A DNA stretch of 64,000 nt from positions 2,144,001-2,208,000 of the forward strand of contig OZ242008.1 of NCBI GenBank assembly GCA_965204735.1, read 5' to 3'. This DNA comes from Longimicrobiales bacterium. Lineage in GTDB: Bacteria; Gemmatimonadota; Gemmatimonadetes; Longimicrobiales; Gaopeijiaceae. Numbering within the stretch: position 1 is the first letter of the stretch; each line of letters starts with the position of its first letter. Below the pieces are notes generated by a model. That model did not search any database. It was not told the origin of the DNA and saw only the letters and a list, made by a program, of their open reading frames with translations. Positions 1-57,221 of this stretch are shown one piece after another. The position numbers and the translations under genes were made by a program.

Positions 1-2005
1 TCGCGTCCGTCGTCGTCCCCTGCCGCCGAATGTAGGCCCCCGACCCCGCAGGAAACGTCAGCGCGTTCGCGCCGATGCTGATCCCCGTCGAGTCCCTGTC
101 CGCCGCCACGACCGTATAGCAGAAGAACGCAAACCTGGGGTTCTGGCCGCACAGCGGGGCCTGCCGCGTCTGCGTCCCGATCCCCAGCGCCAGTTGCGCC
201 TGCGTCGCCGTCGTCGTCGCAATCCTAACGTTCGTGTTGAACCCAACGATCACGCGAACCACATCCCCCGATCCGAACACGCTGTCCGTGCCGGCATGGA
301 ATATCTGCACCCCCTGCGGGTTCGCGACAAAGATGGTCGTCACGTAGGGCACGTCGCCCGTCACCTTGTGCCCCGTCGCGTTCGAGATCGCGTGGCCGCC
401 CAAACCAAGGTTCGCGTTCGCCGATCCGCCCTTGAGCTCGATCGTCCCGCCGTTCAACGCCAAAGCGCTCGCGCCGATGCTGATCCCCGTCGTGTCCACG
501 TCCGCCACGACCACTGTATAGCGAAACCGCAATGAATTGGTGCCCGTGCCCGCCGCGTAGCCCGCCTGCCGCGTCTGCGTCCCGATCCCCAGCGCCACCT
601 GCGGCGTTCCCGTCACGTCCACCGGACGGTCGAAGGCGACCTTGACCTCGATCACGTTCCCTTCCGCGTACGCGCTGTCCGCGCCCGGGTCGCTGCTGAT
701 CGACACGGCGCTCACGTTCGGCGCCACCTCCTTCGTGCCGTCCACCTTGAAAGCAGCATTGTCCGTGTTGTCGTGCGCCGCCAGCGACAGGTTGGCGTTC
801 GTCGACGTGCCCTGCCGCCGGATCGCGCCCCCGGGTATCGTCAGCGCGCTCGCGCCGATGCTGATCCCCGTCGAATCCCTGTCCGCCGCCACGACCGTGT
901 AGTTGAAGTACAGCGAGTGGGCGTTGAACGCGTAGAAGGTCGCGCTTCTCGTGTTCGCCCCGATGGTCAAGGCCAGCCGCGGCCACTGAGTGTGCCAGCT
1001 GATCGGCCTGTCGAACGTCACCTTCACCCTGATGACGTCTTCCAGCCCGAAGGTGCTGTCCGCCGCAGCCTGCGTCATGACAGCGCCTTGTGCGGTGATG
1101 TATTCCACGGCAGACACGAACGGCGGCGCCACCTTGGTGCCGTCCACCTTGTAGGCCACATTGTTCGTGAACGTGTGGTCAGCCAGCGACACGTTCGCGT
1201 CCGTCGTCGTCCCCAGCCGCCGAATGTAGTGCCCAGATGGTATCGTCAGCGCGTTCGCGCCGATGCTGATCCCGGTCGAATCCCTGTCAGCCGCCACGAC
1301 CGTGTAGCAGAAGACCGCAATCGAGGCGGTGCGGGTGCACACCGAGCTCTGCCGCGTCTGCGTCCCGATCTCCAGCGCCAGGTGCGCCGGCGGCTGCACC
1401 TCCACCGAAAAAACGTTCGTGTTGAACACTACGGCCACCCGAATCTCGTCCCCAAGCCCGAACACGCTGTCCGTGCTCGCATGGAATATCTCCGTCCCTG
1501 CGGAGTTCACGAGAAACATGGCCGTCACGTAGGGCACGTCGCCCGTCACCTTGTGCCCCGACGCGTTCGAGATCGCGTTCGTCCCCAACCCCAAGTTCGC
1601 GGCCGTCGCGCCGCCCGCGATCTGGATCGTCCCGCCGTTCAGCGCCAAAGCGCTCGCGCCGATGCTGATGCCGTCCGCGTCCGCGTCCGCCACGACCACT
1701 GTATAGCGGAACCTCAAAGACGTGGTGCCCGAGCCCGTCGCGTAGTCCGCCTGCCGCGTCTGCGTCCCGATCCCCAGCGCCACACGCGGCGTTCCCGTCA
1801 CGTCCACCGACTGGTCGAAGTCGACCTTGACCTCGATCGTGTTGCCTTCGGCGTACGCGCTGTCAGCGCCCGGGTCGCTGGAAATCGACACGCCGCTCAC
1901 GTTCGGCGTCTGGGCGTTCGCAACGACCGGCGACCCGGCGACCACCAGCCCGGCGACCACCAGCACCAAGCCGAGAGCCGAAAGAAGCCTTCGCACTACC
2001 CACAT
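1..2005 (-). CDS. Giant repeat surface protein/adhesin, N-terminal part (runs off left edge); paralogue of 43767-54203
   Basis: Not in the ORF track because there is no stop in the window. Manual translation from ATG 2005 gives MWVVRRLLSALGLVLVVAGLVVAGSPVVANAQTPNVSGVSISSDPGADSAYAEGNTIEVKVDFDQSVDVTGTPRVALGIGTQTRQADY...; no stop seen down to position 1. Signal peptide, then 5 copies (the last partial) of the same ~120-aa repeat as the 3478-aa protein. Confidence 0.9.
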   Translation of the reverse strand, partial: MWVVRRLLSALGLVLVVAGLVVAGSPVVANAQTPNVSGVSISSDPGADSAYAEGNTIEVKVDFDQSVDVTGTPRVALGIGTQTRQADYATGSGTTSLRFRYTVVVADADADGISIGASALALNGGTIQIAGGATAANLGLGTNAISNASGHKVTGDVPYVTAMFLVNSAGTEIFHASTDSVFGLGDEIRVAVVFNTNVFSVEVQPPAHLALEIGTQTRQSSVCTRTASIAVFCYTVVAADRDSTGISIGANALTIPSGHYIRRLGTTTDANVSLADHTFTNNVAYKVDGTKVAPPFVSAVEYITAQGAVMTQAAADSTFGLEDVIRVKVTFDRPISWHTQWPRLALTIGANTRSATFYAFNAHSLYFNYTVVAADRDSTGISIGASALTIPGGAIRRQGTSTNANLSLAAHDNTDNAAFKVDGTKEVAPNVSAVSISSDPGADSAYAEGNVIEVKVAFDRPVDVTGTPQVALGIGTQTRQAGYAAGTGTNSLRFRYTVVVADVDTTGISIGASALALNGGTIELKGGSANANLGLGGHAISNATGHKVTGDVPYVTTIFVANPQGVQIFHAGTDSVFGSGDVVRVIVGFNTNVRIATTTATQAQLALGIGTQTRQAPLCGQNPRFAFFCYTVVAADRDSTGISIGANALTFPAGSGAYIRRQGTTTDA

Positions 2006-2057
2006 GGCACGCCACCTGCATCCGGGCTTGGTCCGAGATGGCGAATACTGAAAGGCG

Positions 2058-2089
<32 letters not shown>

Positions 2090-2117
2090 AATGGAAGCTC
2101 ATCTTGGCCAAGCTCCA

Positions 2118-42619: not shown

Positions 42620-43738
42620 TCAGATCAGTCGGAGCTGAAAGCCGTCCTTCAGGCGCTGCACTGCAGCGGCATGGTATTCGGGGAGCAGCTCCGCCGAATA
42701 GCACTCGCGGTCAGTGTCGGCGCAGACCATGGCGGCGGTGCACAGGCCTCCGAAGGGTTCCCACACGACGTCTCCGGGATCGGAGGCCGCGTCGACGATT
42801 CGCCACATCAGTTCCTTCGGCTTCTGGTTTGCATGAACGAACTTGCCCGAGCCGTCCCGACGACGAACTCGCTCCTCGCCTCGAACCGCAGGCGACGACC
42901 AGACGTTGGTGACCCCAAGACGGAGATTGAACTTCGATCTCATCCGTGCCCAACGCGCGGCCGTCAACGGAACCTGTCCATCGACGGAGTAGTATGGGCG
43001 GCCGTGGGGATGGCCGTGAGCATTTGCATAGTCGGCCAAGCGCTGAAACGCTTCCGGGGGCGGGAAGTACCAGACGTGGTCCTTGGTCAGGTACTTGCGC
43101 GTCGCGGCGTTCTTGACGCCGCAGGCTTCGTTCGACCGGCTCAAGGGCAGGCCAGACCGCTCCCACTCCCACCGCAGCCACTCCTTGACGCCGAGGCTTC
43201 GACCGCTCACCACGAACCTGGGCGCCTTCACGTACTGGGCGCATACTTCGGTTACCACGGGAAACTTGCGCAGCGTCTTTGAGTTCGTGTTGCCGGAGAC
43301 ATGGGCGATCCCCTTGTCCCAGATGTTGCATCCCACGTACACCCATCCGAACTCGACCAACAGCGGATGAACCGTGGCCCACCCGACTTCGGTGTTCCAG
43401 AACCAGAGCGTCGTCTCGCCCGTCGCCGCCGTGGACCACTCCGCCACGTGGGGCCGATACCACTCCACCAGCCCCGCCGGCGTGGGGCTGTCTCCCGGAA
43501 ACCCGGACACCCCGTACGCTCCGTCGGAGACGATGACGACGGGGCTGGGCCACTGGGAATACAGCTGAAGCGCGTCGCCGAGGAAGAGCCTGGCGCCGGC
43601 GTGCCGCGCCGAGGGCGGTCGAGGCGGCGAAGAAGGCGGGTCGGGCCGGGCCGGCGGCGGGGAGCTGACCGAACGGACTGCCATGGGCGAAAGCTGAGCA
43701 GCGACGCGCGCCAAAGCAAGATCGGCGTCCGTTGCCAA
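42620..43738 (-). CDS. DNA amino-methyltransferase (N4C/N6A), beta class
   Basis: LFLGDAL, IVSDGAYG (motif IV variant), NIWDKG, HANQKPKELM, DVVWEPFGGLCT (motif I), YSAEL. Start is 43738 or 43684. Confidence 0.85.
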   Translation of the reverse strand: MATDADLALARVAAQLSPMAVRSVSSPPPARPDPPSSPPRPPSARHAGARLFLGDALQLYSQWPSPVVIVSDGAYGVSGFPGDSPTPAGLVEWYRPHVAEWSTAATGETTLWFWNTEVGWATVHPLLVEFGWVYVGCNIWDKGIAHVSGNTNSKTLRKFPVVTEVCAQYVKAPRFVVSGRSLGVKEWLRWEWERSGLPLSRSNEACGVKNAATRKYLTKDHVWYFPPPEAFQRLADYANAHGHPHGRPYYSVDGQVPLTAARWARMRSKFNLRLGVTNVWSSPAVRGEERVRRRDGSGKFVHANQKPKELMWRIVDAASDPGDVVWEPFGGLCTAAMVCADTDRECYSAELLPEYHAAAVQRLKDGFQLRLI

Positions 43739-43766: not shown

Positions 43767-46700
43767 CTACTTGAAGGTGATCGTGCCGACGACTCCGACG
43801 CGGCGTTCCGGGAGCTGGACGCCGTTGGCGACCTGCTCGCCGAAGAAGTCCATCACCAGGCGGAGGCCGGGGGCCTGCTGCTCGGCGGTCTCGCCACCCA
43901 GCGTCGCCCACTGCGTCCCCACGTTCAGGCGGTAGCCCGCCGCGCCCTCGCGGCTCCAGCGACCGAACGGCTTGATCCGGCCGCCGCCGGGGAGCGCCAC
44001 GCCGTAGCCTACCTCCATCGCCAGGCGGTCGGGCGTCCAGCCTCGTGCGTCCTGGTGTGCTCCCAAGCCGTAGGCGGACGGGAAGCCGTGGGTCGGCCCG
44101 TCGCCGTTGCTCGTGGGACTGCCTGGCCCGGCGGGACCGCCGTGGCCGGTGGGGCCGCCTTGGTCGGTGGGGCTGCCGTGGCCGGCTTGGTCGCCGGCGG
44201 CGGGCACACCGTTGCGCTGCACCGCCGGACCCGGCCAGCCCAGGCCCGGCACGCCGCCGCTCCGCCACACGTCGGCACCGCCCTGCCACAGCGTCTGCGC
44301 GCCCCCCGAGGCATTGCCCCACGACGGCTCCAGCGAGAACGACAGGCCGCCGTCTTCGCGGCCGGGCTGGACCCGCAGCGCCACCGCCGCGCCCCACTCC
44401 TTGAAGTTCCGGTCCTGGTGGATCAGCAGCATCCGGCCCCGTGCATCCAGGCTCAAGCCGCTGCCCACGTGCACGAACCCAAGGTCGGCGCCCGCTTCGG
44501 CACCCATCCCCGTCTCCGCGTCGCCACCGTCGTAGCGACCGCCCACTTCGATCCGCGTCCGCATGGCGATGCTGCCGCTCGTCCACTGCCCGCCCAGCTC
44601 GGGCGCCAGCCGCACCCGCTGCGCGTCGGCCTTCACGGCAGCCACATGTCCGTTCGACGCGTCCGTCGTCATGCGCACCGCGAAGGCGTCGGCCTTCAGC
44701 GCCAAGCCGCCCACCAGCTGCTGACGCACGCCCAGCGCGCCCATCCGCATCCTCAGGTCGGCGTCGTAGGTCGGACCCGTCTCGCCCACGTTGGCGGCGC
44801 CCCGCCCCGCGCCGGCCAAGCCCCAGACGCCGAAGCCGCCCTGGGACGACCAGCTCGCGTAGGGGTAGAGGCTGGTCAGGTGGGCCTTCGTCTTGCCCAC
44901 GCCGTTGATCCCGCTCTCGTAGTTCGCCGCCATGTCGCTGCGCGAGCCGGCCAGGCCCATCAGGAAGCCCGAGCCGAAGCGGTAGTCCAGGCCCAGGTAC
45001 GCCGAGCGGGTGCGGCCGTCCATGGTGAAGTCGTCTTCGGGGCGGCCCTCGAACTCGCCCACGTTGGCCTGGCCCCACAGCGTCCAGCCCGTCTGGGAGG
45101 CCGTCTGCGCCGGGGACGCGCCGGGCGAGCGGCTGGCGGCGCCGGCGTGGGTGTCGGCGTTGTCCTGCTCGCCGCCCGAGCCGCCGAAGGAGAGCTGGAA
45201 CGAGCTCCGGGAGCGGAGGTCGCGGCCCGTCAGAGGGCTGAACGCGACGCCGCCGCGGGTGCGCTCGGCGGGCAGCGCGTCCTCTTCCCGCTGGCCCTGG
45301 TACGAGCCGCCCAGGCCGAGGGATCCGCCCCCAGCGCCCAAGCCCGCTCCGCCGTCGCCGAAGAGGATGGTGGCCAAGTCCAGCGTTCCGCCCGGGATGC
45401 CGCCAAGTCCCGAACCGGCGGCGCCCGGATGCGTGATCTGGAGCCCCAGCAGCCCCGTTGCGTTCCGCACGAGCGACTCGAGCCCGCAACGGCCGCCCAA
45501 AACGCCCCCGCCCAAGCCCGCGCCCCCTTCGTCCGGGCCAGCGTGGGCCGAGGCCGTGCCGCTGGACACGCCGCCCGAGCCACGGCCGCCGCCGAACGCG
45601 ACGCAGCTCAGCGAACGCCCGCCCAGCTGCACGTGCGAGCGGCCCAGCGAACCCGACGACTCCAGACCCAACCGACCGCCGATCGCGTCCACCGTCTCCG
45701 TGCCCAGCGACCGACCGAACGCCGCCAGCGTCAGCTTCAGCGCACGCGCCCGATCCGCACGCGACGCCGACACCGTCACGCTCGCCTGCTGCGTCGCCGT
45801 CAAGCCGCCCGCGTCCGTCGCCGTCACCGTCACCACCGCCGCGCCGATCTCCCGCGGCGCCACCGACAGCCGCCCCGCGCCCGACACCGACGCCGCCGCC
45901 ACGTCCGGCGACGACGACACCACCACGTAGCTCAGCGCGTCCCCGTCCGGGTCCCGGAAGTACTCGCCCAGACCCACCTCCCACGGCGCGCCGCCCACCT
46001 CCAGCACCGGCGGCGACAGCGAACCCACCGCCTCCGGCCCCTCGTTCACGTCCAGCAGCGTCACCACGACCGCCGCCTCGGCCGTCAGACCGCCCACGTC
46101 CGTCACGCGCACCGTCAGCGCGAACTCCGGTGGACCGTCCTCGTAGTCCTCGCCGCCGCCCACGTAGCGCACCTGCCCGCTGGCCCCGTCCACCTGGAAC
46201 CGACCCGCGTCGCCCTGCGCCAAGCTGTACGTCAGCGCGTCGCCTCGGTCCGGGTCCGTCGCCTCGACCCGTCCCAGCTCCCGAGGCCCGCGCACGTTCT
46301 CCGCCAGCTCGAAGGCGTACGCGGAGTCCACGAACGCCGGGGCCTCGTTCACGTCCAGCAGCACCACCCTCACCTTCGCCACCGCCGCCAACCCCGCCCG
46401 GTCCGTCGCCACCACCTCGAACTCCCAGCCATCAGGACCCGTCTCCGCGTCCTCGCCAGCGCCCACGTACCGCACCGCCCCGCTCGACTCGCCCACGTCG
46501 AACAGCGCCGCGCGCGTGCCGCTCAAGCTGTAGCGCAGCGTGTCGCCCGCGTCCACGTCCGTTGCCTCGACCGCACCCAGCTCCACCGGGCCCGCCACGT
46601 GCTCCGCCAACTCCCACTCCCAGATCGACTCGACGAACACCGGGCCCTCGTTCCGGTCCTCGAGCGTCACCACCACACGCGCCCGCGCTGCCAAGCCGCC

Positions 46701-49700
46701 TCGGTCTGTCGCCGTCATCTCCAGATCCCAGCTGCCTGGGCCTGTTTCCGCGTCCTCGCCCGCGCCCACGTACTGCACCGCACCGCTCGTCGCGTTCACC
46801 TTGAACCGCTCGGCGTCGCCCGCCGTCAGCGCGTACGACAGCCAGTCGCCGCCGTCCGGGTCCGTCGCCCGAACCGCGCCCAGCAGCAGCGGACCACGCT
46901 CGTTCTCCGCCAGATCGAAGGCGTACGCAGAGTCGGCGAACGCTGGACCCTCGTTCACGTTCGTCAGCGCCACCGCCACCAACGCCCGCGCGCTCGAACC
47001 CGCCAGGTCCGTCGCCGTCACTTCCAGCTCCCACGACTTCGGTCCCGCGCCCTCGTAGTCCTCCCCGCCGCCCACGTACCGCACCTCGCCTGTCGCGCCG
47101 TCCACCGCGAAGCGATCGGCGTCGCCCGCCGCCAGCCGGTACGTCAGCGTGTCCCCCTCGTCCAGGTCCACCGCCTCCACCGCGCCCAGCGCCAGCGGTC
47201 CGGCAACGTTCTCCGCCATGGCGAAGGCATAGCGCTCCGCCGTGAACACCGGCGCGTCGTTCACGTTCACCAGCCGCACCGTCACCGTCGCGTCGCCCGT
47301 CCGCTCCCCGTCGTCGGCCGTCGCGCGCACGATCATCACGAACTCCGAACGCGACTCCGCGTCCTCGCCCGTCCCCACGTACCGCACCTCGCCGGTGCGA
47401 GCGTCCACCTCGAAGAGACCTTCGTCGCCCGCCGCCAGCGAGTACGCCACCTCGCCGCCGAAGGGGTCCGTCGCACTCACCGTCCCCACCACCACCGGCC
47501 CCGACACGTCCTCCGTCAGCTCGAACTCGTACTCCGCGCGACCGAACACCGGGTCCGTGCCCCCCGCCCCGTTCACCTGGTGCTCCTCCAGGTTCTCCAT
47601 TTCGTGGCCGCTCAAGTCCAGCGCCGCCGCCGTCGTGCCGCCCGCGATCCGCAGCGCAGCGCCGCCCGTCGCAGTCAGCGCGTCGGCAGCGATGCTGATC
47701 CCGTCCTCGTCCCGGTCCGCAGGCTGCACCACGTACTCGAACACCACCGCCGGCGTGCCCGAACCCGACACGTAGCTCGCCTGGCGCACGGCCGTCCCGA
47801 TCTCGATCGACAGCTGCGGCGCGCCCACCACCTCCACTGGTCGGCTGAACGTCACCGTCACACGGATCACGCTCCGGGGACCGTACAGTCCGCTCGCGCC
47901 CGGCGTGCTCGTCACCGCCATCGCCATCACCGCAGGCACCGCCTCCACCGTGCCGTTCACCTTGTCGTTCGCCGCCGCCGCGATTGCGTGGCTGCCCAAC
48001 GCCAGAACCGCCGGACGAACCCCGTCCGCCGTGTTCACGATCGTCGCGCCGTTCAGCGTCAGCGCAGCAGCTGCCACGCCCACGCCGTCGGCGTCCGCGT
48101 CCACGCCGCCCGTCCCGCTCCCGCCACTGCCCGCGCCCTGCACGCGGTACGCGAACGACAGCGTCGCCGTGCCGCTGCCGCCGACGTAGCTCGCCTGCCG
48201 CGTCGTCGTGCCCACCGTCAGCGCCAGCTGCGGCGCGCCCGTCACCGTCACCGCACGGTCGAACGTCACCTGAACCTCGATCCGCTCGCCCAGGCCGTAC
48301 GTGTCGCCGCTCTCCGGCGTGCTCGACACTGCGACGCCCGTCACCGACGCGCCCGCCAGCGTACCGTCCACCTTGTGGCCCGCAGCAGCGCTCAACGCAT
48401 GGCTGCCCAGTCCCAACGCCGCCGCAGTCGTGCCGTCGCGGGCGTCGTTGAGCGTCCCGCTGTTCAGCGCCAAGGCACTCGCGCCCACCTCGATCCCGTC
48501 CGCGTCCGCGTCCGCAGCCACCACCGTGTAGCGGAACGTCAGCGTGTGCGTGCCCGTCCCGCTCGCGTAGTCCGCCTGCCGCGTCTGCGCGCCCACCGTC
48601 AGCGCCACCTGCGGCGTGCCCGTCACCGCCACGCGACGGTTGAACGTCACCTGAACCTCGATCTGCTCGCCCCGCGCGTACGTCGTCCCCACCGCAGGCG
48701 AACTCGTCAGCGACACGCCGCTCACTGACGCCGCCGTGAACGTTCCGCCCGCAACCTTGTGCCCCGCGCTGTTCGTCACCGCGTGGGCGCCCAGCCCCAG
48801 AACCGCGTCCACCGCCCCGCCCGCCACGTCGATCATTCCGCCGTTCAGCGCCAACGCGGTCGCGCCGATGCTCAACCCGTCCGCGTCCGCGTCCGCCTGC
48901 ACCACCACGTACCGGAACACCAACGACGCCGTGCCCGTCCCGCTCGCGTAGCTCGCCTGCTTCGTCGCAGCGCCGATCGTCAGCGCCAGCTGCGGCGTGC
49001 CCGTCACGTCCACCCCCTTGTTGAACGTCACCGTCGCCACCACGGTGTCGCCACGCTCGAACGTGTCGCCGATCGGCGGCGACGCGACCGACACCCCGCT
49101 CACCCCCGGCGGGCCCTGGGTGCCGTCCACACGGTGGCCCGTGCTGTTCGATATCGCGTGGCTGCCCAGCCCAAGGCTCGCAGCCGTCGAACCGTCGCGC
49201 GCATCCGAGATCGTCCCGCCGTTCAGCGCCAGCGCGCTCGCACCGATGCTGATCCCATCGGTGTCCGCGTCCGCAGCCGCCACCGTGTAGCGGAACGTCA
49301 GCACGCCGCCGCCCGCCGCCACGCTCGTCGCCGAATCGTACGCCGCCTGCCGCGTCTGGCTCCCGATCGTCAGCGCCAGCTGCGGCGCGCCCGTCACCGT
49401 CACGTTGCGGTCGAACGTCACCTCCACCTCGATCTCCTCGCTCAACCCGTACGTGCTCGCGCCCGCCGGGCTGCTCGTGATCGTCACGCCGCTCACCGAC
49501 GCCGCCGTGAACGTCCCGCCCGCAACTCGCAACGCGCCGTCGTTGCTGATCGCATGATGCGCCAGGCTCAGCAAGGCGTCCGTCGTACCGCCCGCCACGT
49601 CGATCGTACCCCCGTTCAGCGCCAGCGCGCTCGCGCCCACGCTCAAGCCGTCGGTGTCCGCGTCCGCCGTTACCACCACGTACCGGAACACCAGCGCCGC

Positions 49701-52700
49701 CGAGCCCGTCCCCGATGCGTAGCCCGCCTGCCGCGTCTGCCCGCCGATCCCCAGCGCCAGCTGCGGCGTCCCCGTCACGTCCACCGCCTTGTTGAACGTC
49801 ACCGTCGCAACCACCGTGTCGCCGCGCTCGAACGTGCCGCCCGGCGGCGCCGCCACCGACAAGCCTGCGACCCCCGGCGGCCCCTGGCTACCGTCCACCT
49901 TGTGCGCCGCAGCGCTCGTCACCGCATGCGCGCCCAGCCCCAGCGCCGCAGCCGGCGCTCCAGGCCGCACGTCCGCAATCGTTCCGCCGTTCAGCGCGAG
50001 CGCGCTCGCACCGATGCTGATCCCGACCGTGTCCATGTCCACAGGACGAACCGCGTACGCGAACACCAGCGTGTCCACCTTGCTCGAAGCCGAATCGTAG
50101 CTCGCCTGTCGCGTCTGCGTTCCGATCGTCAGCGCCAGCCGCGGCGTGCCCGTCACCGCCACCGGACGACTGAACGCCACCTTCACCTCGATCTGCTCGC
50201 CCAGCTTGTACGTGCTGTCCGCCGCCGGCGCGCTCGATATCGTCACCGCGCTCACCGCCGGCGTCGTGAACGTCCCCGTAACCTTGTGCCCCGTGCTGTT
50301 CGCCACCGCATTCGAACCCAGGTCCAGCACAGCGTCCAACGTCCCACCCGCAACCTTGATCGTCCCGCCGTTCAGCGCCAAAGCGCTCGCGCCGATGCTC
50401 AATCCGTCCGCGTCCGTGTCGCCACTCGCCACCACGTACCGGAACACCAGCGTGTCCGTGCCCGTCCCGCTCGCGTAGCCCGCCTGCCGCGTCGCACTCC
50501 CGATTCCCAGCGCCAACTGCGGTGTCCCCGTCACGTCCACCGAACGGCTGAACGCCAGCGCCACCTCGATCGTCTCGCCCCGCTCGAAGGTGTCGCCCAC
50601 CGTCGGAGAACTGATCGACAACGCCGTCACGCCCGGAGGACCCAGACTCCCGTCCACCTTGTGCAAAGCAGCGTTCGCGATCGCGTGCGAACCCAACCCC
50701 AAGCTCGCGTTTGCCGTGGCGCCGGCGAGCACGATCGTACCCCCGTTCAGCGCCAAAGCGCTCGCACCGATGCTCAACCCGTCCAAATCGCTGTTCGCCG
50801 CCACCACCACGTAGCGGAACGTCAGCGTCCTCGTCTCCGAACCGCTCGCGTAGCTCGCCTGGACCGTGTCGCTGCCGATCTCCAGCGCCAGCTGCGGCGT
50901 CCCCGTCACCGCCACCGAACGCTCGAACTCCACCTCCACCTCGATCGCCTCCGTCCGGCCGTACGTCGAGTCGGCGCCCGCGTCGCTCGATATCGTCACC
51001 CCGCTCACGCCCGGCGCCACCTCCTTCGTCCCGTCCACCTGGAACGCCGCCGCGTCCGCAAAGTTCCACGGCGCCAAAGTCAGCCGCGCGTCCGTCGTCG
51101 TGCCCGTCCCACGGATCGTCGCGCCGCCCGGCAGCGTCAGCGCGCTCGCCCCAATGCTGATCCCCGTCGAGTCCGCGTCCTCAGCAGCCACCGTGTAGCA
51201 GAACACCAGGATGACGCCGCCCCCTGTCGTGCCGCACTGCGGAGCACTCCGCGTCTGCGCGCCGATCCCCAGCGCCAGACTCGGCGTCCCCGTCACCGTC
51301 ACGCCCGTGTTGAACCCAACCCCCACGCGTATCGGGTCGCCCAGACCGAACACGCTGTCCGTGCTCGCGTACGACAGCCCGCCGAGCGTCGCCGACAGGA
51401 AGAACACGCTCGTCACGTAGGGAATGTCGCCCGCAACCTTGTGCGCCGCCGCATTCGTGAACACGTGCGACCCCAACGCCAAGTTCGCCGCGTCCGACCA
51501 CAGCCGACTGTCCGCGATCGTGTCCGACGCGCTCACCGCCAGCGCGCCCGTTCCCACGCTGATCCCGTCCGCGTCCGCGTCCGTCGCCTGAACCACGTAC
51601 CGGAACGTCACCCGCGTGAACGTCGCGTCCCTGCGGTTGTACTCCGCCTGACGCGTCGAGTCGCCGACCGCCAAGGCCAGCTGCGGCGTCCCCCCCACGT
51701 ACACGCTCCGCACGAACTCCACCTCCACCTCGATCGCCTCGCCCCCCAAGTAAGTGTCGCCCACCGCCGGAGTGCTCGTTATCCTCATGCCCTTCACCAC
51801 CGGCGTCGTCCGCGTGTTGCCCGCAACCTTGTGCGCCGCGCTGTTCGAAATCACGTGGCCGCTCAGGCCCAGAACCGCGTCCGTCGTCGTCCCCATCCGC
51901 CGGATCGTGCCCCCGGACGGAGTCTCCAAAGCGCTCGCCCCGATGCTGATCCCGTCCGTGTCCGCGTCCGTCTGGAACACCGTGTACTCGAACTCCAGCG
52001 ACGTCGTCCCCGAACCTCTCACGTACAGCGCGTTCCGCGAACTCGAGCCGATCCCGAGCCGAACCCGCGGCCTGTTTGCACCTGTGCCCGTCACCGTCAC
52101 CGCAACGTCGAACTCCACCGTCACAACCACAACGTCGCTCAATTCGAACGTGCTGTCCGCCACAGCATCGCTGATCGACACCCCCGTCACCACCGGACGG
52201 TCGCCCGCCACCTTGTGCGCCCCAGCGTTCGCGATCGCATGAGAACCCAGTCCCAGCTCCGCCGTCACCGTCGCGCCCGCCTTGTTGATCGTCCCGCTGT
52301 TCAACCCCAACGCGCTCGCGCCAATGCTCAACCCGTCCGCGTCCGCGTCCGTCGCCGCCACCGTGTAACGGAACGTCAGCGAATCCGTCCCCGTCCCGCC
52401 CGCGTAGCCCGCCTGCCGCGTCGCCGCCCCGATCCCCAACGCCACCTGCGGCGTCCCCGTCACGTCCACCGCCTCGCTGAACTTCACCCACACCTCGATC
52501 CGCTGGCCCACCCCGTACGTGCTGTCCGAGCCCGTCGTGCTCGCGAGCCCCGCGCCCGCCACCACCGGCACGCCCTGCAAACCGTCCACCTTGTGCGCCG
52601 CAGCGTTCGACACCGCGTGCGCGCCCAGCGACAAGTCCGCCCGCGCCGTGCCCCCGACGCGCGTGATCGGCGCCGCGAAGTTGCTGAAAGCGTTCGCCGG

Positions 52701-54203
52701 GATGCTGATCCCGTCCGCGTCCAAGTCCGCGCGCGTCACCGTGTACCGGAAGAACACGTCGTCCGCGTCCTTCGAGTACCAGCCCGCCGCCCGAACGTTG
52801 TCCCCGATCTCCAGGTTCAGCGTCATGTTGCCCAGGAAGTTCGGCGTCACCACCGCACGGTCGAACTGAACCCGCACGTTGATGTTGTCGCCCGCAGCGT
52901 ACGTCGAGTCCGTGCCCGCGCCGCTCAAGAACGTCACCGCCGATATCCTCGGCACGATCAGCGCGCCGTTCACCTTGTGCGCACCAGCGTTGGTGATCGC
53001 GTTGGCGCCGAGCGACAGCGTCGCGTCCACCGCCGTGCCCGCGTTCCTGATCGTCGCGCCGGACGGGGCCGCCAGCGCGCTCGCGCCGATGCTTATCCCG
53101 TCCGCGTCCGTGTCCGCCGCCACCACCGCGTACTCGAACACCAGCGTGTCCGTGCCCGTCCCGCTCGAGTAGGCCGCCTGCCTGGTCTGCGTGCCGATCC
53201 CCAAAGCCAGCTGCGGCGTCCCCGTCACGTCCACGTTCCCGCTGAACGCCACCGCCACCCGAATCCGCTCCGCCCGACCGTACGTGCTGTCCGCAGCGAC
53301 CGGCGTGCTCGCCACGGCCACCCCGGTCACCGTCCGCCTCGCCGTCCCCCCTTGCACCTTGTGGGCCGCGGGGTTCGCGATCGTGTGGCCGCTCAGGCTC
53401 AGTATCGCGTTCTTCGAGCCGAGCCTGATCGTCCCGCTGTTCAGCGACAACGCGCTCGCGCCGATGCTGAGCCCGTCCGCGTCCACGTCCGACGACGCCA
53501 CCACGTACCGGAACACCAGCGACGCCGTGCCCGTCCCGCTCGCGTAGTTCGCCTGCCGCGTCGCCGCACCGATCCACAGCGCCAGCTGCGGCGTGCCCGT
53601 CACCGCCACCGTCGAGTCGAACGTCACCGTCACCGCAATCGTATCCCCAGCATAGTACGTGCTGTCGACGCCCGCGCTGCTGGATATCGTCACCCCCGTC
53701 ACCTTGGGATACCCCTGGACGCCGTCCACCTTGTGGGCCGCAGCGTTCGTGATCGTCTTGCCCGTCAAGCTCTCGTTGATTCGTGAACCACTGGCGGCAC
53801 CGTCCAGATCGTGAGGACCCATCTGGGTGACGCTGATCCCGTCCGCGTCCGCGTCCGACGTCTGCACAAGGTACCAATACTCTATCCAGCTGAACCCAGT
53901 GCTGTATCCTGGAAGTGGGGTATTTGCGGTGAACGTTCCGGTTCCACCCCTCGCCCGTGCGTACCTGGTTGTCGTCCCGATCGTCATATGCACGGCCGCA
54001 CCGTCGGTTTGGGCAAAGTCCACACCGGCACTGAAGTACGCCCTGATCTTGATGGTGTCGTCCGCCGCGTACGTGTTGTCCGAACCCGACGAGCTGACGA
54101 TCTTCAGACTGTCCACGTTTTGGGCGCTCAGCGGCGCCGGCGCCGCGATCCCGAACGCCGCCAGCAGGCCGAGGGCCGCGAGCGCGGTTCTGGCTGCCGG
54201 CAT
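43767..54203 (-). CDS. Giant autotransporter-like adhesin, 3478 aa: signal peptide, 17 x ~120-aa beta-rich repeats, 5 cadherin-like domains, an Ig-like domain and a C-terminal beta-barrel
   Basis: Repeat consensus VTGTPQLALxIGxxTRQAxYxSGTGTxxLxFxYxVxxxDxDxDGISIGASALxLNGGTI...HKVxG. Cadherin motifs AEN..GxVxAxDxD...DVNE(A/G)P. TGWTLWGQ...YLGLDYRF...GGRYDGGDAETGMG barrel ending ITFK. Confidence 0.92.
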   Translation of the reverse strand: MPAARTALAALGLLAAFGIAAPAPLSAQNVDSLKIVSSSGSDNTYAADDTIKIRAYFSAGVDFAQTDGAAVHMTIGTTTRYARARGGTGTFTANTPLPGYSTGFSWIEYWYLVQTSDADADGISVTQMGPHDLDGAASGSRINESLTGKTITNAAAHKVDGVQGYPKVTGVTISSSAGVDSTYYAGDTIAVTVTFDSTVAVTGTPQLALWIGAATRQANYASGTGTASLVFRYVVASSDVDADGLSIGASALSLNSGTIRLGSKNAILSLSGHTIANPAAHKVQGGTARRTVTGVAVASTPVAADSTYGRAERIRVAVAFSGNVDVTGTPQLALGIGTQTRQAAYSSGTGTDTLVFEYAVVAADTDADGISIGASALAAPSGATIRNAGTAVDATLSLGANAITNAGAHKVNGALIVPRISAVTFLSGAGTDSTYAAGDNINVRVQFDRAVVTPNFLGNMTLNLEIGDNVRAAGWYSKDADDVFFRYTVTRADLDADGISIPANAFSNFAAPITRVGGTARADLSLGAHAVSNAAAHKVDGLQGVPVVAGAGLASTTGSDSTYGVGQRIEVWVKFSEAVDVTGTPQVALGIGAATRQAGYAGGTGTDSLTFRYTVAATDADADGLSIGASALGLNSGTINKAGATVTAELGLGSHAIANAGAHKVAGDRPVVTGVSISDAVADSTFELSDVVVVTVEFDVAVTVTGTGANRPRVRLGIGSSSRNALYVRGSGTTSLEFEYTVFQTDADTDGISIGASALETPSGGTIRRMGTTTDAVLGLSGHVISNSAAHKVAGNTRTTPVVKGMRITSTPAVGDTYLGGEAIEVEVEFVRSVYVGGTPQLALAVGDSTRQAEYNRRDATFTRVTFRYVVQATDADADGISVGTGALAVSASDTIADSRLWSDAANLALGSHVFTNAAAHKVAGDIPYVTSVFFLSATLGGLSYASTDSVFGLGDPIRVGVGFNTGVTVTGTPSLALGIGAQTRSAPQCGTTGGGVILVFCYTVAAEDADSTGISIGASALTLPGGATIRGTGTTTDARLTLAPWNFADAAAFQVDGTKEVAPGVSGVTISSDAGADSTYGRTEAIEVEVEFERSVAVTGTPQLALEIGSDTVQASYASGSETRTLTFRYVVVAANSDLDGLSIGASALALNGGTIVLAGATANASLGLGSHAIANAALHKVDGSLGPPGVTALSISSPTVGDTFERGETIEVALAFSRSVDVTGTPQLALGIGSATRQAGYASGTGTDTLVFRYVVASGDTDADGLSIGASALALNGGTIKVAGGTLDAVLDLGSNAVANSTGHKVTGTFTTPAVSAVTISSAPAADSTYKLGEQIEVKVAFSRPVAVTGTPRLALTIGTQTRQASYDSASSKVDTLVFAYAVRPVDMDTVGISIGASALALNGGTIADVRPGAPAAALGLGAHAVTSAAAHKVDGSQGPPGVAGLSVAAPPGGTFERGDTVVATVTFNKAVDVTGTPQLALGIGGQTRQAGYASGTGSAALVFRYVVVTADADTDGLSVGASALALNGGTIDVAGGTTDALLSLAHHAISNDGALRVAGGTFTAASVSGVTITSSPAGASTYGLSEEIEVEVTFDRNVTVTGAPQLALTIGSQTRQAAYDSATSVAAGGGVLTFRYTVAAADADTDGISIGASALALNGGTISDARDGSTAASLGLGSHAISNSTGHRVDGTQGPPGVSGVSVASPPIGDTFERGDTVVATVTFNKGVDVTGTPQLALTIGAATKQASYASGTGTASLVFRYVVVQADADADGLSIGATALALNGGMIDVAGGAVDAVLGLGAHAVTNSAGHKVAGGTFTAASVSGVSLTSSPAVGTTYARGEQIEVQVTFNRRVAVTGTPQVALTVGAQTRQADYASGTGTHTLTFRYTVVAADADADGIEVGASALALNSGTLNDARDGTTAAALGLGSHALSAAAGHKVDGTLAGASVTGVAVSSTPESGDTYGLGERIEVQVTFDRAVTVTGAPQLALTVGTTTRQASYVGGSGTATLSFAYRVQGAGSGGSGTGGVDADADGVGVAAAALTLNGATIVNTADGVRPAVLALGSHAIAAAANDKVNGTVEAVPAVMAMAVTSTPGASGLYGPRSVIRVTVTFSRPVEVVGAPQLSIEIGTAVRQASYVSGSGTPAVVFEYVVQPADRDEDGISIAADALTATGGAALRIAGGTTAAALDLSGHEMENLEEHQVNGAGGTDPVFGRAEYEFELTEDVSGPVVVGTVSATDPFGGEVAYSLAAGDEGLFEVDARTGEVRYVGTGEDAESRSEFVMIVRATADDGERTGDATVTVRLVNVNDAPVFTAERYAFAMAENVAGPLALGAVEAVDLDEGDTLTYRLAAGDADRFAVDGATGEVRYVGGGEDYEGAGPKSWELEVTATDLAGSSARALVAVALTNVNEGPAFADSAYAFDLAENERGPLLLGAVRATDPDGGDWLSYALTAGDAERFKVNATSGAVQYVGAGEDAETGPGSWDLEMTATDRGGLAARARVVVTLEDRNEGPVFVESIWEWELAEHVAGPVELGAVEATDVDAGDTLRYSLSGTRAALFDVGESSGAVRYVGAGEDAETGPDGWEFEVVATDRAGLAAVAKVRVVLLDVNEAPAFVDSAYAFELAENVRGPRELGRVEATDPDRGDALTYSLAQGDAGRFQVDGASGQVRYVGGGEDYEDGPPEFALTVRVTDVGGLTAEAAVVVTLLDVNEGPEAVGSLSPPVLEVGGAPWEVGLGEYFRDPDGDALSYVVVSSSPDVAAASVSGAGRLSVAPREIGAAVVTVTATDAGGLTATQQASVTVSASRADRARALKLTLAAFGRSLGTETVDAIGGRLGLESSGSLGRSHVQLGGRSLSCVAFGGGRGSGGVSSGTASAHAGPDEGGAGLGGGVLGGRCGLESLVRNATGLLGLQITHPGAAGSGLGGIPGGTLDLATILFGDGGAGLGAGGGSLGLGGSYQGQREEDALPAERTRGGVAFSPLTGRDLRSRSSFQLSFGGSGGEQDNADTHAGAASRSPGASPAQTASQTGWTLWGQANVGEFEGRPEDDFTMDGRTRSAYLGLDYRFGSGFLMGLAGSRSDMAANYESGINGVGKTKAHLTSLYPYASWSSQGGFGVWGLAGAGRGAANVGETGPTYDADLRMRMGALGVRQQLVGGLALKADAFAVRMTTDASNGHVAAVKADAQRVRLAPELGGQWTSGSIAMRTRIEVGGRYDGGDAETGMGAEAGADLGFVHVGSGLSLDARGRMLLIHQDRNFKEWGAAVALRVQPGREDGGLSFSLEPSWGNASGGAQTLWQGGADVWRSGGVPGLGWPGPAVQRNGVPAAGDQAGHGSPTDQGGPTGHGGPAGPGSPTSNGDGPTHGFPSAYGLGAHQDARGWTPDRLAMEVGYGVALPGGGRIKPFGRWSREGAAGYRLNVGTQWATLGGETAEQQAPGLRLVMDFFGEQVANGVQLPERRVGVVGTITFK

Positions 54204-54304
54204 CAGGGCAGACCTAATAATAAGACCGAGCGCCCGATCCAGGTTGCTGACTGAAGTCGCCCCGGGAAAATCCAGGGGGGGGGGGGGGGGGGGGGGGGGG
54301 ACAT
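54203..54304 (-). CDS. Out-of-frame poly-Pro leader ORF (33 aa); probable true 5' end of the giant adhesin gene
   Basis: AGGAGA (54309-54314), then ATG 54304, then T-C26. Reads MS-P8-WIFPGRLQSATWIGRSVLLLGLP*; its TGA overlaps ATG 54203. Confidence 0.55.
   Translation of the reverse strand: MSPPPPPPPPWIFPGRLQSATWIGRSVLLLGLP
54275..54300. repeat. Homopolymer G26 (C26 on coding strand)
   Basis: 26 consecutive G. Confidence 0.9.
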
Positions 54305-54336
54305 GAACTCTCCTACTTCACCATGAGGTGCGCCGA

Positions 54337-54489
54337 CCAGGGGGTGGCGGGCGGCCAGGGGGGTGGCGGGCGACGGCGACACCGATAAGGTCAAAGGCAC
54401 CCGCGACAAGGTCAAGGCATCCGGCCAAAGAACTGGCGACCCGCCTGGTCGCAACGCCGGGGTGACGACCGCAACGCCGGGGTGACGAC
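54337..54489. repeat. Three adjacent short tandem duplications upstream of the giant adhesin
   Basis: ccaggggg(g)tggcgggcg x2 (54337-54372); cga(t/c)aaggtcaa(a)ggca x2 (54383-54422); cgcaacgccggggtgacgac x2 (54450-54489). Confidence 0.85.
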
Positions 54490-54530
54490 AATATCCCCAT
54501 CGGCCCAACAGCAGCACCGAGATCGCAGGC

Positions 54531-57221
54531 TCACCGCCCGGCCGCCGGAGCTGGACGACCCCCGTAGAACGCCTCCACGTGGCGTCGGGCCTCGGCCCAT
54601 GGTCCCTTGACCAATGGCATGGGCGGCAACGTTTCCCGCATGACCCGGCCGTAGCGCTTCCGGAGGATGCGGTCGTCCAGCAGCACGACCACGCCCCGGT
54701 CGGTGCGGCGGCGGATCAGGCGGCCCACGCCCTGCTTGAGGCGAATCGCGGCGTCGGGGACCATGAACTCCCAGAACGAGTTCTTGCCCCGTTCCTCCAT
54801 TGCCTCGACCCGGGCTTCGGTGACGGGCTCGGTGGGCACGCGGAAGGGCAGCTTCTGGACCACCAGCGCGCGGAGCGGGTCGCCGGGCACGTCCACCCCC
54901 TCCCAAAACGACGCCGTGCCCAGCAGGACGGCCGCCCCCGACTCGGTGAAGCGCTGGAGAAGCGCGGAACGGTCGGCCTCGCCCTGCACCTGGAGCGGCC
55001 AGCGGGCTTCGGCGCCGCGCGCGCGCAACTCCCGCGCCACCCCCCGCAGCGCGGCGTAGGAGGTGAAGAGCGCGAAGAGGCCCCCGCCCGAGCGCTCCGC
55101 CACGTCGTGGACCACGCCGGCGACGGCGCGGTGGTAGGCGTCGCCCGCGTCCCGCTCCCGGCCCGGCGCGGGCAGGCCCGTGGGCACCACCAAGCAGGCC
55201 TGGGACCGGTAGTCGAAGGGCGAGTCGAAGGCGGCTTCGGCAGGGGGCGGGAGAGGGTCGGGCGGTGGCGGGAGAGGGTCGCTGTCCAGCAACGTGGGCG
55301 TCGTCGCGCGCGCCGCCGGGCCGGGGCCGCCGCCGGAGAGGCCCAGGCGGTCCTTCAGGTAGCCGAAGCCGCCGTCGGCGGTCAGGGTCGCCGAGGTGAG
55401 GACGGTGGTCTTCGCGGCGCCGAAGAGGTGCTCGGCCAAGATGGGGCCCGGCTCCACGGGGGCGGTGGCCATCACCAAGTTGCCGACGCGGCCGATCCCG
55501 CCCGAAGCGGCCCGCTCGCCGGAGCCGGGCCCCGGGCCCGCCTGCCGCCGGGGGCGCCGGAGCTCGATCCAGCGCACGATGCGCGGGCCGTCTTCCGGGC
55601 CCGGGAGGAGGCAGCGGCGCAGGGCGGTCTCCGCATGATCCATCCGGTTCGACGAACTTCGCAGGTCGAGCAGGCGGCCTTCCAGCTCGGGGGCCATTTC
55701 CTCCTCCCCCTCCAAGCGGTCGTAGAGCGACTCCAGCTCCCGCCGCACGTCCGCCAGCGACGCGAGCGCCCGGTCCAGGGACTCGGCCACCGCCGAATCG
55801 TCCGTGGGCTCCAACCCGGCGGAAGAGGCGGCCCCGCCGGCGCCCGACCCGCCCGGCGCTCCCAGCCGCAACGGGCCGCGTCCGGCGCGCTCCTCGGCCC
55901 AAGGCTCCATGAAGCCGAAGAACTCGGTGAGGGCCTTCCGCAGCTCCTCGACCTTGCTCCGGGTCCGGCGGAAGCGGGCCGCCAGCGCCTCCGCCTCCTG
56001 GGGGCCGACGGCGGAGCGGGCCGCCGCTTCGATGGAGGGCAGCACGCCCTTTCCCTGCCGGTGGAGACGGGAGACGGCTCGGAAGAGCCCGGCCCGAGTG
56101 GCCTGGGTGCCCAAGCGGTCGGTGGCGGCGTCCTCCAGATGGTGGGCCTCGTCGAAGACGACGCGCCTGTACGGGGGCAGGACCGCCGCGTCGCGGAAGT
56201 TGTCGGTGGCGATCCGGACCGCCAAGTCGGAGAAGAAGAGGGCGTGGTTGACGACCAGCAGGTCGGCGGCGGCGGCCCTGCGGCGCGCTCGCTGGTAGTG
56301 GCAGGCCTGGAAGTAGGGACAGCGGGCGCGCATGCAGGCGTCGGTGTCGCTGCGGACTTCCTCCCAGACGTCGGGGGCGGGCGCGAAGCCCAGGTCGGCC
56401 AGGGAGCCGTCGTCGGTGTTGCGGAGCCACTCCAGGACCGCCGCGATCTCGTCGGAGCGGTCGCTGCGGAAGAGAGTGGCCGCCGACTCCCCCGCCAGGA
56501 ACGCCCGACGGATCGACACGTAGTTGGCCCGGCCCTTCACCAGGGCCCACCTGATCTCTTCGCCCAGCACCTCCTCGGCCAGCGGAATGTCCTTCCGGAC
56601 CAGCTGCTCCTGAAGGTTGATCGTGTTGGTGGAGACCACCGTCCGCTCGTGGTTGCGCACCGCCCACCGCGCCGCCGGCACCAGGTAGGCCATCGACTTG
56701 CCCGTCCCGGTCCCCGCCTCCACCAGCCCGGTCCCGCCCTCGTTGAAGCGCTCCGCCACGAAGCGCAGCATCGCCCGCTGGCCCGCCCGGTCCTCGTAGC
56801 CCGCCATCGAAGCCATCGCCCCGCCGGGGGCCGCGACGCCTTCCAGCTCGTCCACATCCAGCAGCTCGATCCGCTTCGGCGCCGGGGGCTCGACCACCAC
56901 GTACATCCGGTCGGCCCGGTTGCTGACGATGGCGCTGCCCAGCCCCTCGTCGTGAAGGCGGGCGGCCACGTCCAGGTCCGCGTCCGACGGATCGAGGACG
57001 CCCGACGGGTGGTTGTGGATCATCAACCCGCCCTCGGGCGCGTCCCGGGCGACGGCAAGCACCGCGGAGCGGCTCCCCCGGGCGACGGCCCTGGGGTTGA
57101 CGACCACCCGGTCGCGAGTCACCTCGGCCAGGAACGAGACTTCCCGACCGCCGGCCCGGGCCACCTCGTCGCGAACGACCCGCGCGGCCTCCGGAGCCAG
57201 CCGGAGGGGCAAGGCGGTCAC
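54531..57221 (-). CDS. DinG/YoaA-family helicase with N-terminal JAB/MPN domain
   Basis: JAB: GREVSF...IHNHPSGVLDPSDAD. Helicase: EAGTGTGKSMAYL, STNTINLQEQL, KGRANY, FDEAHHLE, TSATL, LFTSY, FWEGVDVPG, QGVGRLIR. GTG 57221 overlaps the upstream stop. Confidence 0.92.
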   Translation of the reverse strand: MTALPLRLAPEAARVVRDEVARAGGREVSFLAEVTRDRVVVNPRAVARGSRSAVLAVARDAPEGGLMIHNHPSGVLDPSDADLDVAARLHDEGLGSAIVSNRADRMYVVVEPPAPKRIELLDVDELEGVAAPGGAMASMAGYEDRAGQRAMLRFVAERFNEGGTGLVEAGTGTGKSMAYLVPAARWAVRNHERTVVSTNTINLQEQLVRKDIPLAEEVLGEEIRWALVKGRANYVSIRRAFLAGESAATLFRSDRSDEIAAVLEWLRNTDDGSLADLGFAPAPDVWEEVRSDTDACMRARCPYFQACHYQRARRRAAAADLLVVNHALFFSDLAVRIATDNFRDAAVLPPYRRVVFDEAHHLEDAATDRLGTQATRAGLFRAVSRLHRQGKGVLPSIEAAARSAVGPQEAEALAARFRRTRSKVEELRKALTEFFGFMEPWAEERAGRGPLRLGAPGGSGAGGAASSAGLEPTDDSAVAESLDRALASLADVRRELESLYDRLEGEEEMAPELEGRLLDLRSSSNRMDHAETALRRCLLPGPEDGPRIVRWIELRRPRRQAGPGPGSGERAASGGIGRVGNLVMATAPVEPGPILAEHLFGAAKTTVLTSATLTADGGFGYLKDRLGLSGGGPGPAARATTPTLLDSDPLPPPPDPLPPPAEAAFDSPFDYRSQACLVVPTGLPAPGRERDAGDAYHRAVAGVVHDVAERSGGGLFALFTSYAALRGVARELRARGAEARWPLQVQGEADRSALLQRFTESGAAVLLGTASFWEGVDVPGDPLRALVVQKLPFRVPTEPVTEARVEAMEERGKNSFWEFMVPDAAIRLKQGVGRLIRRRTDRGVVVLLDDRILRKRYGRVMRETLPPMPLVKGPWAEARRHVEAFYGGRPAPAAGR

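Follow-up and report, generated by a model that had tools for sequence, protein, structure and literature searches.

A poly-C tract between two start codons of a giant adhesin gene in a Longimicrobiales bacterium, a probable phase-variation switch

What does a run of 26 C's do when it lies immediately after a start codon and shortly ahead of a second one that opens a giant surface protein? This arrangement occurs in a Longimicrobiales bacterium (Gemmatimonadota; Gaopeijiaceae), in the 64,000-nucleotide (nt) stretch analyzed here (the window; positions 2,144,001 to 2,208,000 of contig OZ242008.1, GenBank assembly GCA_965204735.1). Re-reading of the minus strand confirmed the layout AGGAGA-GTTC-ATG-T-C26, followed 71 nt beyond the tract by an ATG at 54203 that begins an open reading frame (ORF) of 3,478 amino acids (aa). 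With 26 C, the assembly value, which may be off by one base, translation gave a 33-aa leader (MS-P8-WIF...LGLP*), the TGA of which overlaps the second ATG as TGATG, in agreement with the original prediction. Further back, the leader frame remains open to GTG 54517. The claim that 24 or 27 C would join the upstream ATG and its ribosome-binding site to the adhesin frame also held when the frames were computed, the spacer being stop-free in that frame. At 25 C, the leader terminates 13 nt ahead of ATG 54203.

A probable switch by slippage in the leader

The C26 tract is probably a slipped-strand translational phase-variation switch, i.e., a simple-sequence-repeat contingency locus resembling that of gonococcal pilC. 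Ribosomes would begin at the upstream ATG, which has a Shine-Dalgarno (SD) motif, and traverse the C run, while replication slippage would add or remove single C's. Lengths of 24 or 27 C would fuse leader and adhesin, placing a proline-rich extension of ∼33 aa ahead of the signal peptide, and would be fully ON. At 25 C, the early leader stop would leave the gene OFF. In the assembled state of 26 C, termination at TGATG could mean OFF, or some native precursor could be made by termination-reinitiation. The AGGAGA/anti-SD duplex was calculated at −7.3 kcal/mol (genome quartiles, −6.9, −4.5, and −2.2), whereas the SD at the second ATG was weak (−3.1) and that ATG was poorly accessible (0.15 unpaired). 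Second ATGs were structured like internal Met codons (median, −21.6, compared with −20.8 for internal Met and −14.6 for stand-alone starts) and are thus likely to be poor independent starts.

The genome under study (G000) is a single contig of 4.14 Mb with 69% GC, and three genus mates (G001 to G003) were compared with it. G/C runs in G000 fell from 1,419 of 6 nt to 168 of 7, 15 of 8, three of 9 to 10, and none of 11, yet 27 runs of 12 to 36 nt were present. Extrapolation of the decay predicts 0.003 runs of ≥12 nt, so the tract is not a chance occurrence. Runs of this size numbered 6, 27, and 46 in G001, G002, and G003, respectively. Of the 16 called genes of ≥3,000 aa in G000, 12 had a C run of 16 to 33 nt at the 5′ end, and the C's were always on the coding strand. 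Twelve G000 genes share a beta domain (≥91% identity), and 11 of these carry a tract. One of these tracts, ahead of a 4,899-aa paralog, also lies in the window (Table 1), and as assembled its leader runs past the second ATG out of frame. The twelfth gene, which has no tract, encodes a paralog of 12,965 aa (genome positions 2772607 to 2811504) and is frameshifted inside the beta domain near its end, which may reflect a pseudogene or an assembly error.

From 117 tracts in the four genomes, 36 preceded a long, high-scoring ORF, and 34 adhesin tracts were kept after removal of L032 (not an adhesin) and a second, distant tract in L050. These tracts spanned 13 to 33 nt; the length of the present tract, described originally as unusual for such a locus, is therefore ordinary within the genus. 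C was on the coding strand at all 34 loci, and the tract opened directly into the adhesin frame at 32. The original prediction had suggested testing whether long C tracts are enriched just after the ribosome-binding site and ATG of giant exported proteins. Here, a stop-free ATG lay ≤30 nt upstream of the tract at 24 of 34 loci, compared with 8.3 expected from shuffles, and ≤60 nt upstream at 28 (13.4 expected). An independent pattern count in the same genomes gave 51 matches, compared with 12 for a reversed control. P values for these statistics overstate the case, as the paralogs are related.

Spacer stops were scored at 30 loci, all of which had an open frame as well as a second Met (two closed loci, L066, and L078 were excluded). 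The fused frame contained no stops in any of the 30, which had been preselected as open, whereas about 6.6 were expected; the +1 and +2 frames were interrupted at 4 and 8 loci, respectively, against the same expectation for each. Substitutions in the spacer were spread evenly over the codon positions (38/42/44), in contrast to the signal peptide (101/42/141). The N-terminal extension thus appears to be kept open while its sequence is free; a first impression by eye that the spacer is conserved at the amino acid level was overturned by these counts.

Tract length differed between homologs. The closest, L059 of G002, has C22 and a 53-nt spacer and is 90% identical over 4 kb, with a different upstream region. 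Other homologous tracts differed as well, the pairs including the present one being 26/22, 27/21, 19/14, 33/19, and 20/17, and tracts in one methyltransferase gene measured 13/18/26. In G002 (L059/L002) the neighborhood is another one, the tract, spacer, and gene being common and the upstream ATG different; a transposase-like ORF, which we take to be IS630-like, lies upstream of L059 on the opposite strand.

Variation within the population was checked in contigs from 4 of 17 listed sequencing runs. In runs X3 and X4 the site was spanned by single contigs that lacked 46 and 45 letters, respectively, of the window sequence; the one-base net difference between them may fall in the tract. Contigs of runs X1 and X2 ended at the tract. 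On these comparisons, length variation is established between species only. Both X3 and X4 carry a 1-nt deletion at 54217 that alters the spacer peptide and, by reading, leaves the fused frame open. Upstream of the switch lie two 20-bp tandem duplications (54383 to 54423 and 54450 to 54489), and the ∼45 letters missing from X3 and X4 fall across this region. Among six runs matching at least half of the words, four were labelled sponge metagenome, and two of these gave long matching contigs. No RNA data sets were listed for the locus, which has no bearing on expression.

Loss of mismatch repair as the cause of the long tracts was rejected, as MutS and MutL domains were present in 5/5 genomes tested; EF-P and Rho domains were also found in all five. 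In meningococci, mismatch repair curbs slippage of G5 to G8 tracts, with no measured difference at G10 to G13 (PMC4085013). By analogy, long tracts in a repair-proficient genome would fit the meningococcal behavior at G10 to G13.

Outside the genus the picture was mixed. Five further genera of the family showed no enrichment of an ATG before the tract (10 matches, 8 in the control). The 5′ ends of 20 homologs from other genera were estimated, and five showed a run of ≥15: L260 conforms in every respect, L257 is interrupted by a stop in the fused frame, and a suitable ATG is lacking at L265, L266, and L267. These misses carry little weight because the 5′ ends were estimated. Searching named genomes with the pattern GGAG-ATG-C16 returned at least 121 stretches, many at contig ends. 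Among the matches listed, 22 SD-ATG-Cn loci of secreted type from other phyla were picked by eye, several of the taxa presumably being sponge symbionts, and 19 had no detected second Met before the signal peptide, leaving the fused frame as the only plausible ON state there. It is for this reason, together with the open fused frame, that 24 and 27 C are taken as fully ON. Two exact-pattern scans of metagenome contigs gave no match.

Several observations weigh against phase variation by leader fusion. The second Met was retained at 30/30 scored loci, although a model with fusion as the only productive state does not need it. Six of the 34 loci had no ATG within 60 nt, and two or three of these adjoin a TTGACA box instead. 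SD strength did not differ significantly between the upstream and downstream ATGs (24 loci; P = 0.17), and the difference between X3 and X4 was the only hint of length variation within one population. The start-codon enrichment, the open fused frame, and the differences between homologs make slippage of DNA the well-supported part of the proposed frameshift switch, so far as sequence comparison can tell.

Alternatives and a possible third state

The original prediction had also raised the option of three states, with TGATG-coupled reinitiation between fusion and OFF. With 26 C the stop of the leader and the second start do overlap, and TGATG and ATGA are standard coupling overlaps (PMC10666635). 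Across the scored loci, the first +1-frame stop lay at −2 (8 loci), +1 (7 loci), +7 (9 loci), or +13 (2 loci) relative to the second ATG, i.e., in 26/30, while no locus had a +2-frame stop within 12 nt of it. Within one family, 12/12 Val codons underlying the +7 stop are GTA, a codon with a genome use of 1.6 to 3.9%; the family members without it are the present locus and L059, both of which have TGATG. As assembled, 26 loci were distributed as 12 coupled, 9 fused, 3 overrun, and 2 early stop. By our estimate this split is not clearly distinguishable from equal thirds, and the assembled lengths may be one off. A weak SD and burial of the second ATG would be expected if ribosomes must be delivered there.

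The stop positions, the GTA codons, and the assembled states also speak for a reading in which ATG 54203 would be the sole productive start, with the leader delivering ribosomes by termination-reinitiation, 26 C being ON, and the fused form unproductive or incidental. The onset of coding-type constraint at the second ATG, and the fact that L260, from another genus, obeys the same stop rule, are further points in favor of this explanation. Set against it, the first +1 stop falls within the same span of positions in 42 to 47% of ATG genes, the canonical −1/−4 overlaps account for only 15/30 first stops, and the +7 stop is no commoner in closely spaced gene pairs (3.8%) than in stand-alone genes (4.3%). 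Moreover, it is the fused frame that is open beyond chance, not the +1 frame, and the 30 loci represent about eight families. A sole second start is therefore considered unlikely. For the three-state idea, the clustering of +1 stops is suggestive and, given that background, not decisive: a functional coupled state at 26 C is possible but rated somewhat below an even chance. More tentative still is the full three-position reading, in which the leader would fuse, hand over ribosomes, or miss the start, giving graded rather than binary output on some 12 giant adhesins in each genome, with the same SD-ATG-poly-C cassette adopted across sponge-symbiont lineages and targeting adhesins, restriction-modification genes, and precursor peptides resembling ribosomally synthesized and posttranslationally modified peptides (RiPPs).

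Action of the tract on transcription or mRNA (promoter spacing, a leader rheostat, attenuation, or Rho loading), with the frame irrelevant, is about as unlikely as a sole second start. It draws on three loci, the paralog at genome position 1448582 and its relatives L057 and L066, where C33, C19, and C26, respectively, run directly into TTGACA with a −10-like box before the giant gene; at two of these loci the adhesin frame is closed. These tracts look like a second, promoter-type use. C-rich RNA is the preferred substrate of Rho, which is present, and the spacer contains a terminator-like hairpin. However, no sigma-70-like promoter, the only type searched for, was found in 53900 to 54900, so that this tract stands beside no such boxes, unlike the one at 1448582; the T-rich tail of the hairpin is missing in the closest homolog; and neither the ATG enrichment nor the open fused frame would be expected.

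A DNA tract of fixed length, with expression arising from slippage during transcription or from a +1 shift of ribosomes on the C run, is very improbable. Homologous tracts vary freely and fall in all three frames, whereas programmed recoding would hold one register. CCC-C by a start codon is a +1-shift-prone context in Escherichia coli (PMC6335274), and such shifts could add leak to any state, so the OFF states may be leaky. Finally, a sequencing or assembly artifact (two-color poly-G, or a true in-frame tract of 27 C) can be largely dismissed: although the length of long homopolymers is difficult to determine, X1 and X2 contigs end where the tract lies, and many C runs in fragmented relatives sit at contig ends, the run is internal to the 4.14-Mb contig, a counterpart occupies the same position in G002, such runs have one strand orientation at every adhesin locus and lie in specific gene classes, and a one-base sizing error would alter only the current state.

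The adhesin and comparison with known systems

Downstream of the switch, codon-position bias indicated that the signal-peptide-like region is coding. The ∼127-aa repeat that follows was modeled as all-beta with a predicted local distance difference test (pLDDT) score of 97; the best structural matches were middling (Z, 6 to 8.4) and included immunoglobulin (Ig) domains of adhesins and S-layer proteins, while Foldseek returned nothing below an E value of 0.001 and a Pfam search gave no family for the repeat. The C-terminal domain is probably an autotransporter beta-barrel, which in type Va autotransporters has 12 strands (PF03797). It had no Pfam hidden Markov model match, PF03797 included, and its structure model was uninformative (pLDDT, 34), but 28/30 matches in a language-model feature search belonged to the PF03797 cluster set. 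With its signal-peptide-like start, Ig-like repeats, and cadherin domains, the product is predicted to be a surface protein. Sponge symbionts are reported to be enriched in cadherin-domain genes (PMC8163846).

Table 1. Features of the switch locus, the adhesin gene, and a sibling switch in the window
Feature	Position	Strand	Basis
Shine-Dalgarno-like AGGAGA	54309..54314	-	Sequence; duplex energy to anti-SD
Upstream ATG, inferred main start	54302..54304	-	Matching layout at most adhesin tracts in genus
Poly-C tract, 26 nt (G26 on + strand), proposed switch	54275..54300	-	Sequence; C22 at same place in G002 homolog L059
Spacer, 71 nt, stop-free in adhesin frame	54204..54274	-	Substitution pattern suggests no amino acid constraint
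Leader ORF, 33 aa, at 26 C	54203..54304	-	Sequence reading
TGATG stop/start overlap, second ATG	54201..54205	-	Also present in G002 homolog
Weak terminator-like hairpin within spacer	54223..54240	-	T-rich tail missing in G002 homolog
Giant surface protein ORF from second ATG, 3,478 aa	43767..54203	-	ORF translation
Signal-peptide-like N terminus, aa 1 to 28, A-L-S-A-like motif ahead of Q	54120..54203	-	By eye
17 tandem repeats, ∼127 aa each, all-beta, Ig-like	47568..54119	-	Repeats; structure model
Five cadherin-like domains	45984..47555	-	PF00028 (E value, 1.6e−30); five motif starts
Bacterial Ig domain (Big_9)	45654..45986	-	PF17963 (E value, 2.9e−7)
Probable autotransporter beta-barrel	43770..45116	-	Language-model features, 0.96 to PF03797 clusters
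Sibling switch: GGAG, ATG 2102, C27 (2087-2061), second ATG 2005	2003..2102	-	Heads 4,899-aa paralog

The proposed switch is of a known kind and probably functional. In Neisseria gonorrhoeae, poly-G in the signal-peptide region of pilC and CTCTT repeats in the leader peptide of opa (PMC5354566) lie, as here, between the start codon and the mature surface adhesin and set it ON or OFF by frameshift, and opa, with up to 12 paralogs, likewise forms a family of independently switching copies. The locus shares with them a repeat above background, a 5′ position after what would be the start codon, a predicted surface protein, and length differences between homologs. Unlike pilC and opa, the present tracts are poly-C on the coding strand (13 to 33 nt), the targets are autotransporter-like proteins of 3,500 to 13,300 aa in a sponge symbiont, and a second ATG persists close to an out-of-frame stop. 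N-terminal enrichment of repeats is a recognized signature of phase variation (PMC3315296), and in Haemophilus influenzae repeats lie just after the start (PMC2651432).

As in termination-reinitiation coupling (PMC10666635), the leader at 26 C ends in a −1 overlap with a weak-SD, structured downstream start. It differs in that the upstream ORF would be a length-variable leader, so slippage would switch the coupling, and in that 11/30 loci have overlaps of 10 or 16 nt rather than the common −1/−4. In Streptococcus gallolyticus pil1 (PMC3894217), a repeat also shifts the end of a leader peptide controlling an adhesin gene; pil1 acts through a transcription terminator, whereas the present locus would have a direct in-frame fusion state. 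A conserved terminator of the pil1 type was not found at the locus, the single hairpin being weak and its T-rich tail absent in the closest homolog. As among phase-variable methyltransferases with poly-C/G tracts (PMC3711429), other G000 tracts lie inside restriction-modification genes; they strike the MmeI/Eco57I-type and N6_Mtase families rather than type III mod genes. Phase variation and coupling are treated as separate classes in that article. A literature search, with subscription journals and supplements outside its scope, found no description of phase variation in sponge symbionts or of phase variation combined with coupling, nor anything relevant on multi-start switching at lic1A, and a term search of PMC11868660 gave no mention of such symbionts.

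The locus stands out for its scale, its lineage, and a retained second start that perhaps gives a third state. Repeat-driven phase variation has been studied almost wholly in vertebrate pathogens, and the present host is an uncultured symbiont. The 12 tract-bearing genes among the 16 largest, up to 40 kb each, are apparently under independent stochastic switches, implying thousands of surface combinations. If the eleven or twelve switches on giant adhesins work independently, clonal cells would display different adhesin sets. In a host without antibodies, the selective pressures could include phage, host amoebocytes, and the cost of 10- to 40-kb genes. The retained second start suggests a route to an intermediate level from one repeat. 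For annotation, gene callers begin at the second ATG and conceal the switch.

Other tracts and neighboring genes

In G000, a C18 tract splits an MmeI/Eco57I-type restriction-modification gene out of frame (L321:2461), and a restriction-methyltransferase fusion (L323:6059) contains an in-frame C13, its homologs having C18 and C26; by their sequence arrangement, these two are candidate phasevarions. Tracts at L317, L318, L033, L040, L041, L276, and L277 fall in PMT_2 membrane glycosyltransferase-like or SGNH-like genes, which suggests switchable modification of surface glycans. At L320:2206 (G000), C13 lies directly ahead of a cas3 ORF, near CRISPR-like repeats noted by eye. A small gene common to three genomes, with no Pfam match, carries C36, C15, C15, and C16 at the same place (L319:2407, L325:2038, L058, and L101, respectively).

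The neighbors of the adhesin gene include, both on the minus strand, a DinG-like helicase with a JAB-like N terminus (54534 to 57221) and an N6/N4 DNA methylase (42623 to 43510); no tie to the switch was seen for either.

Short peptide genes with a strong SD, an ATG, and a C run were found in G003 (L067, L081, L087, L088, L090, L092, L093, L094, and L102) and in other named loci (L113, L116, L134, L135, L141, L153, L166, L180, and L218). Their C runs of 13 to 25 lie ahead of a leader motif that we take to be of the PW..P type, some in frame and others not, and look like switches of phase-variable RiPP (lasso-like) precursors. G003 has ∼13 related copies, some next to P450 genes, and one tract adjoins an asparagine-synthase-like gene. 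L136, L161, and L163 carry the same peptide-leader tracts as G003. At L122:1501-1537, SD-ATG-C19 is followed by a peptide, out of frame as assembled, that presumably resembles an NHLP-type precursor leader.

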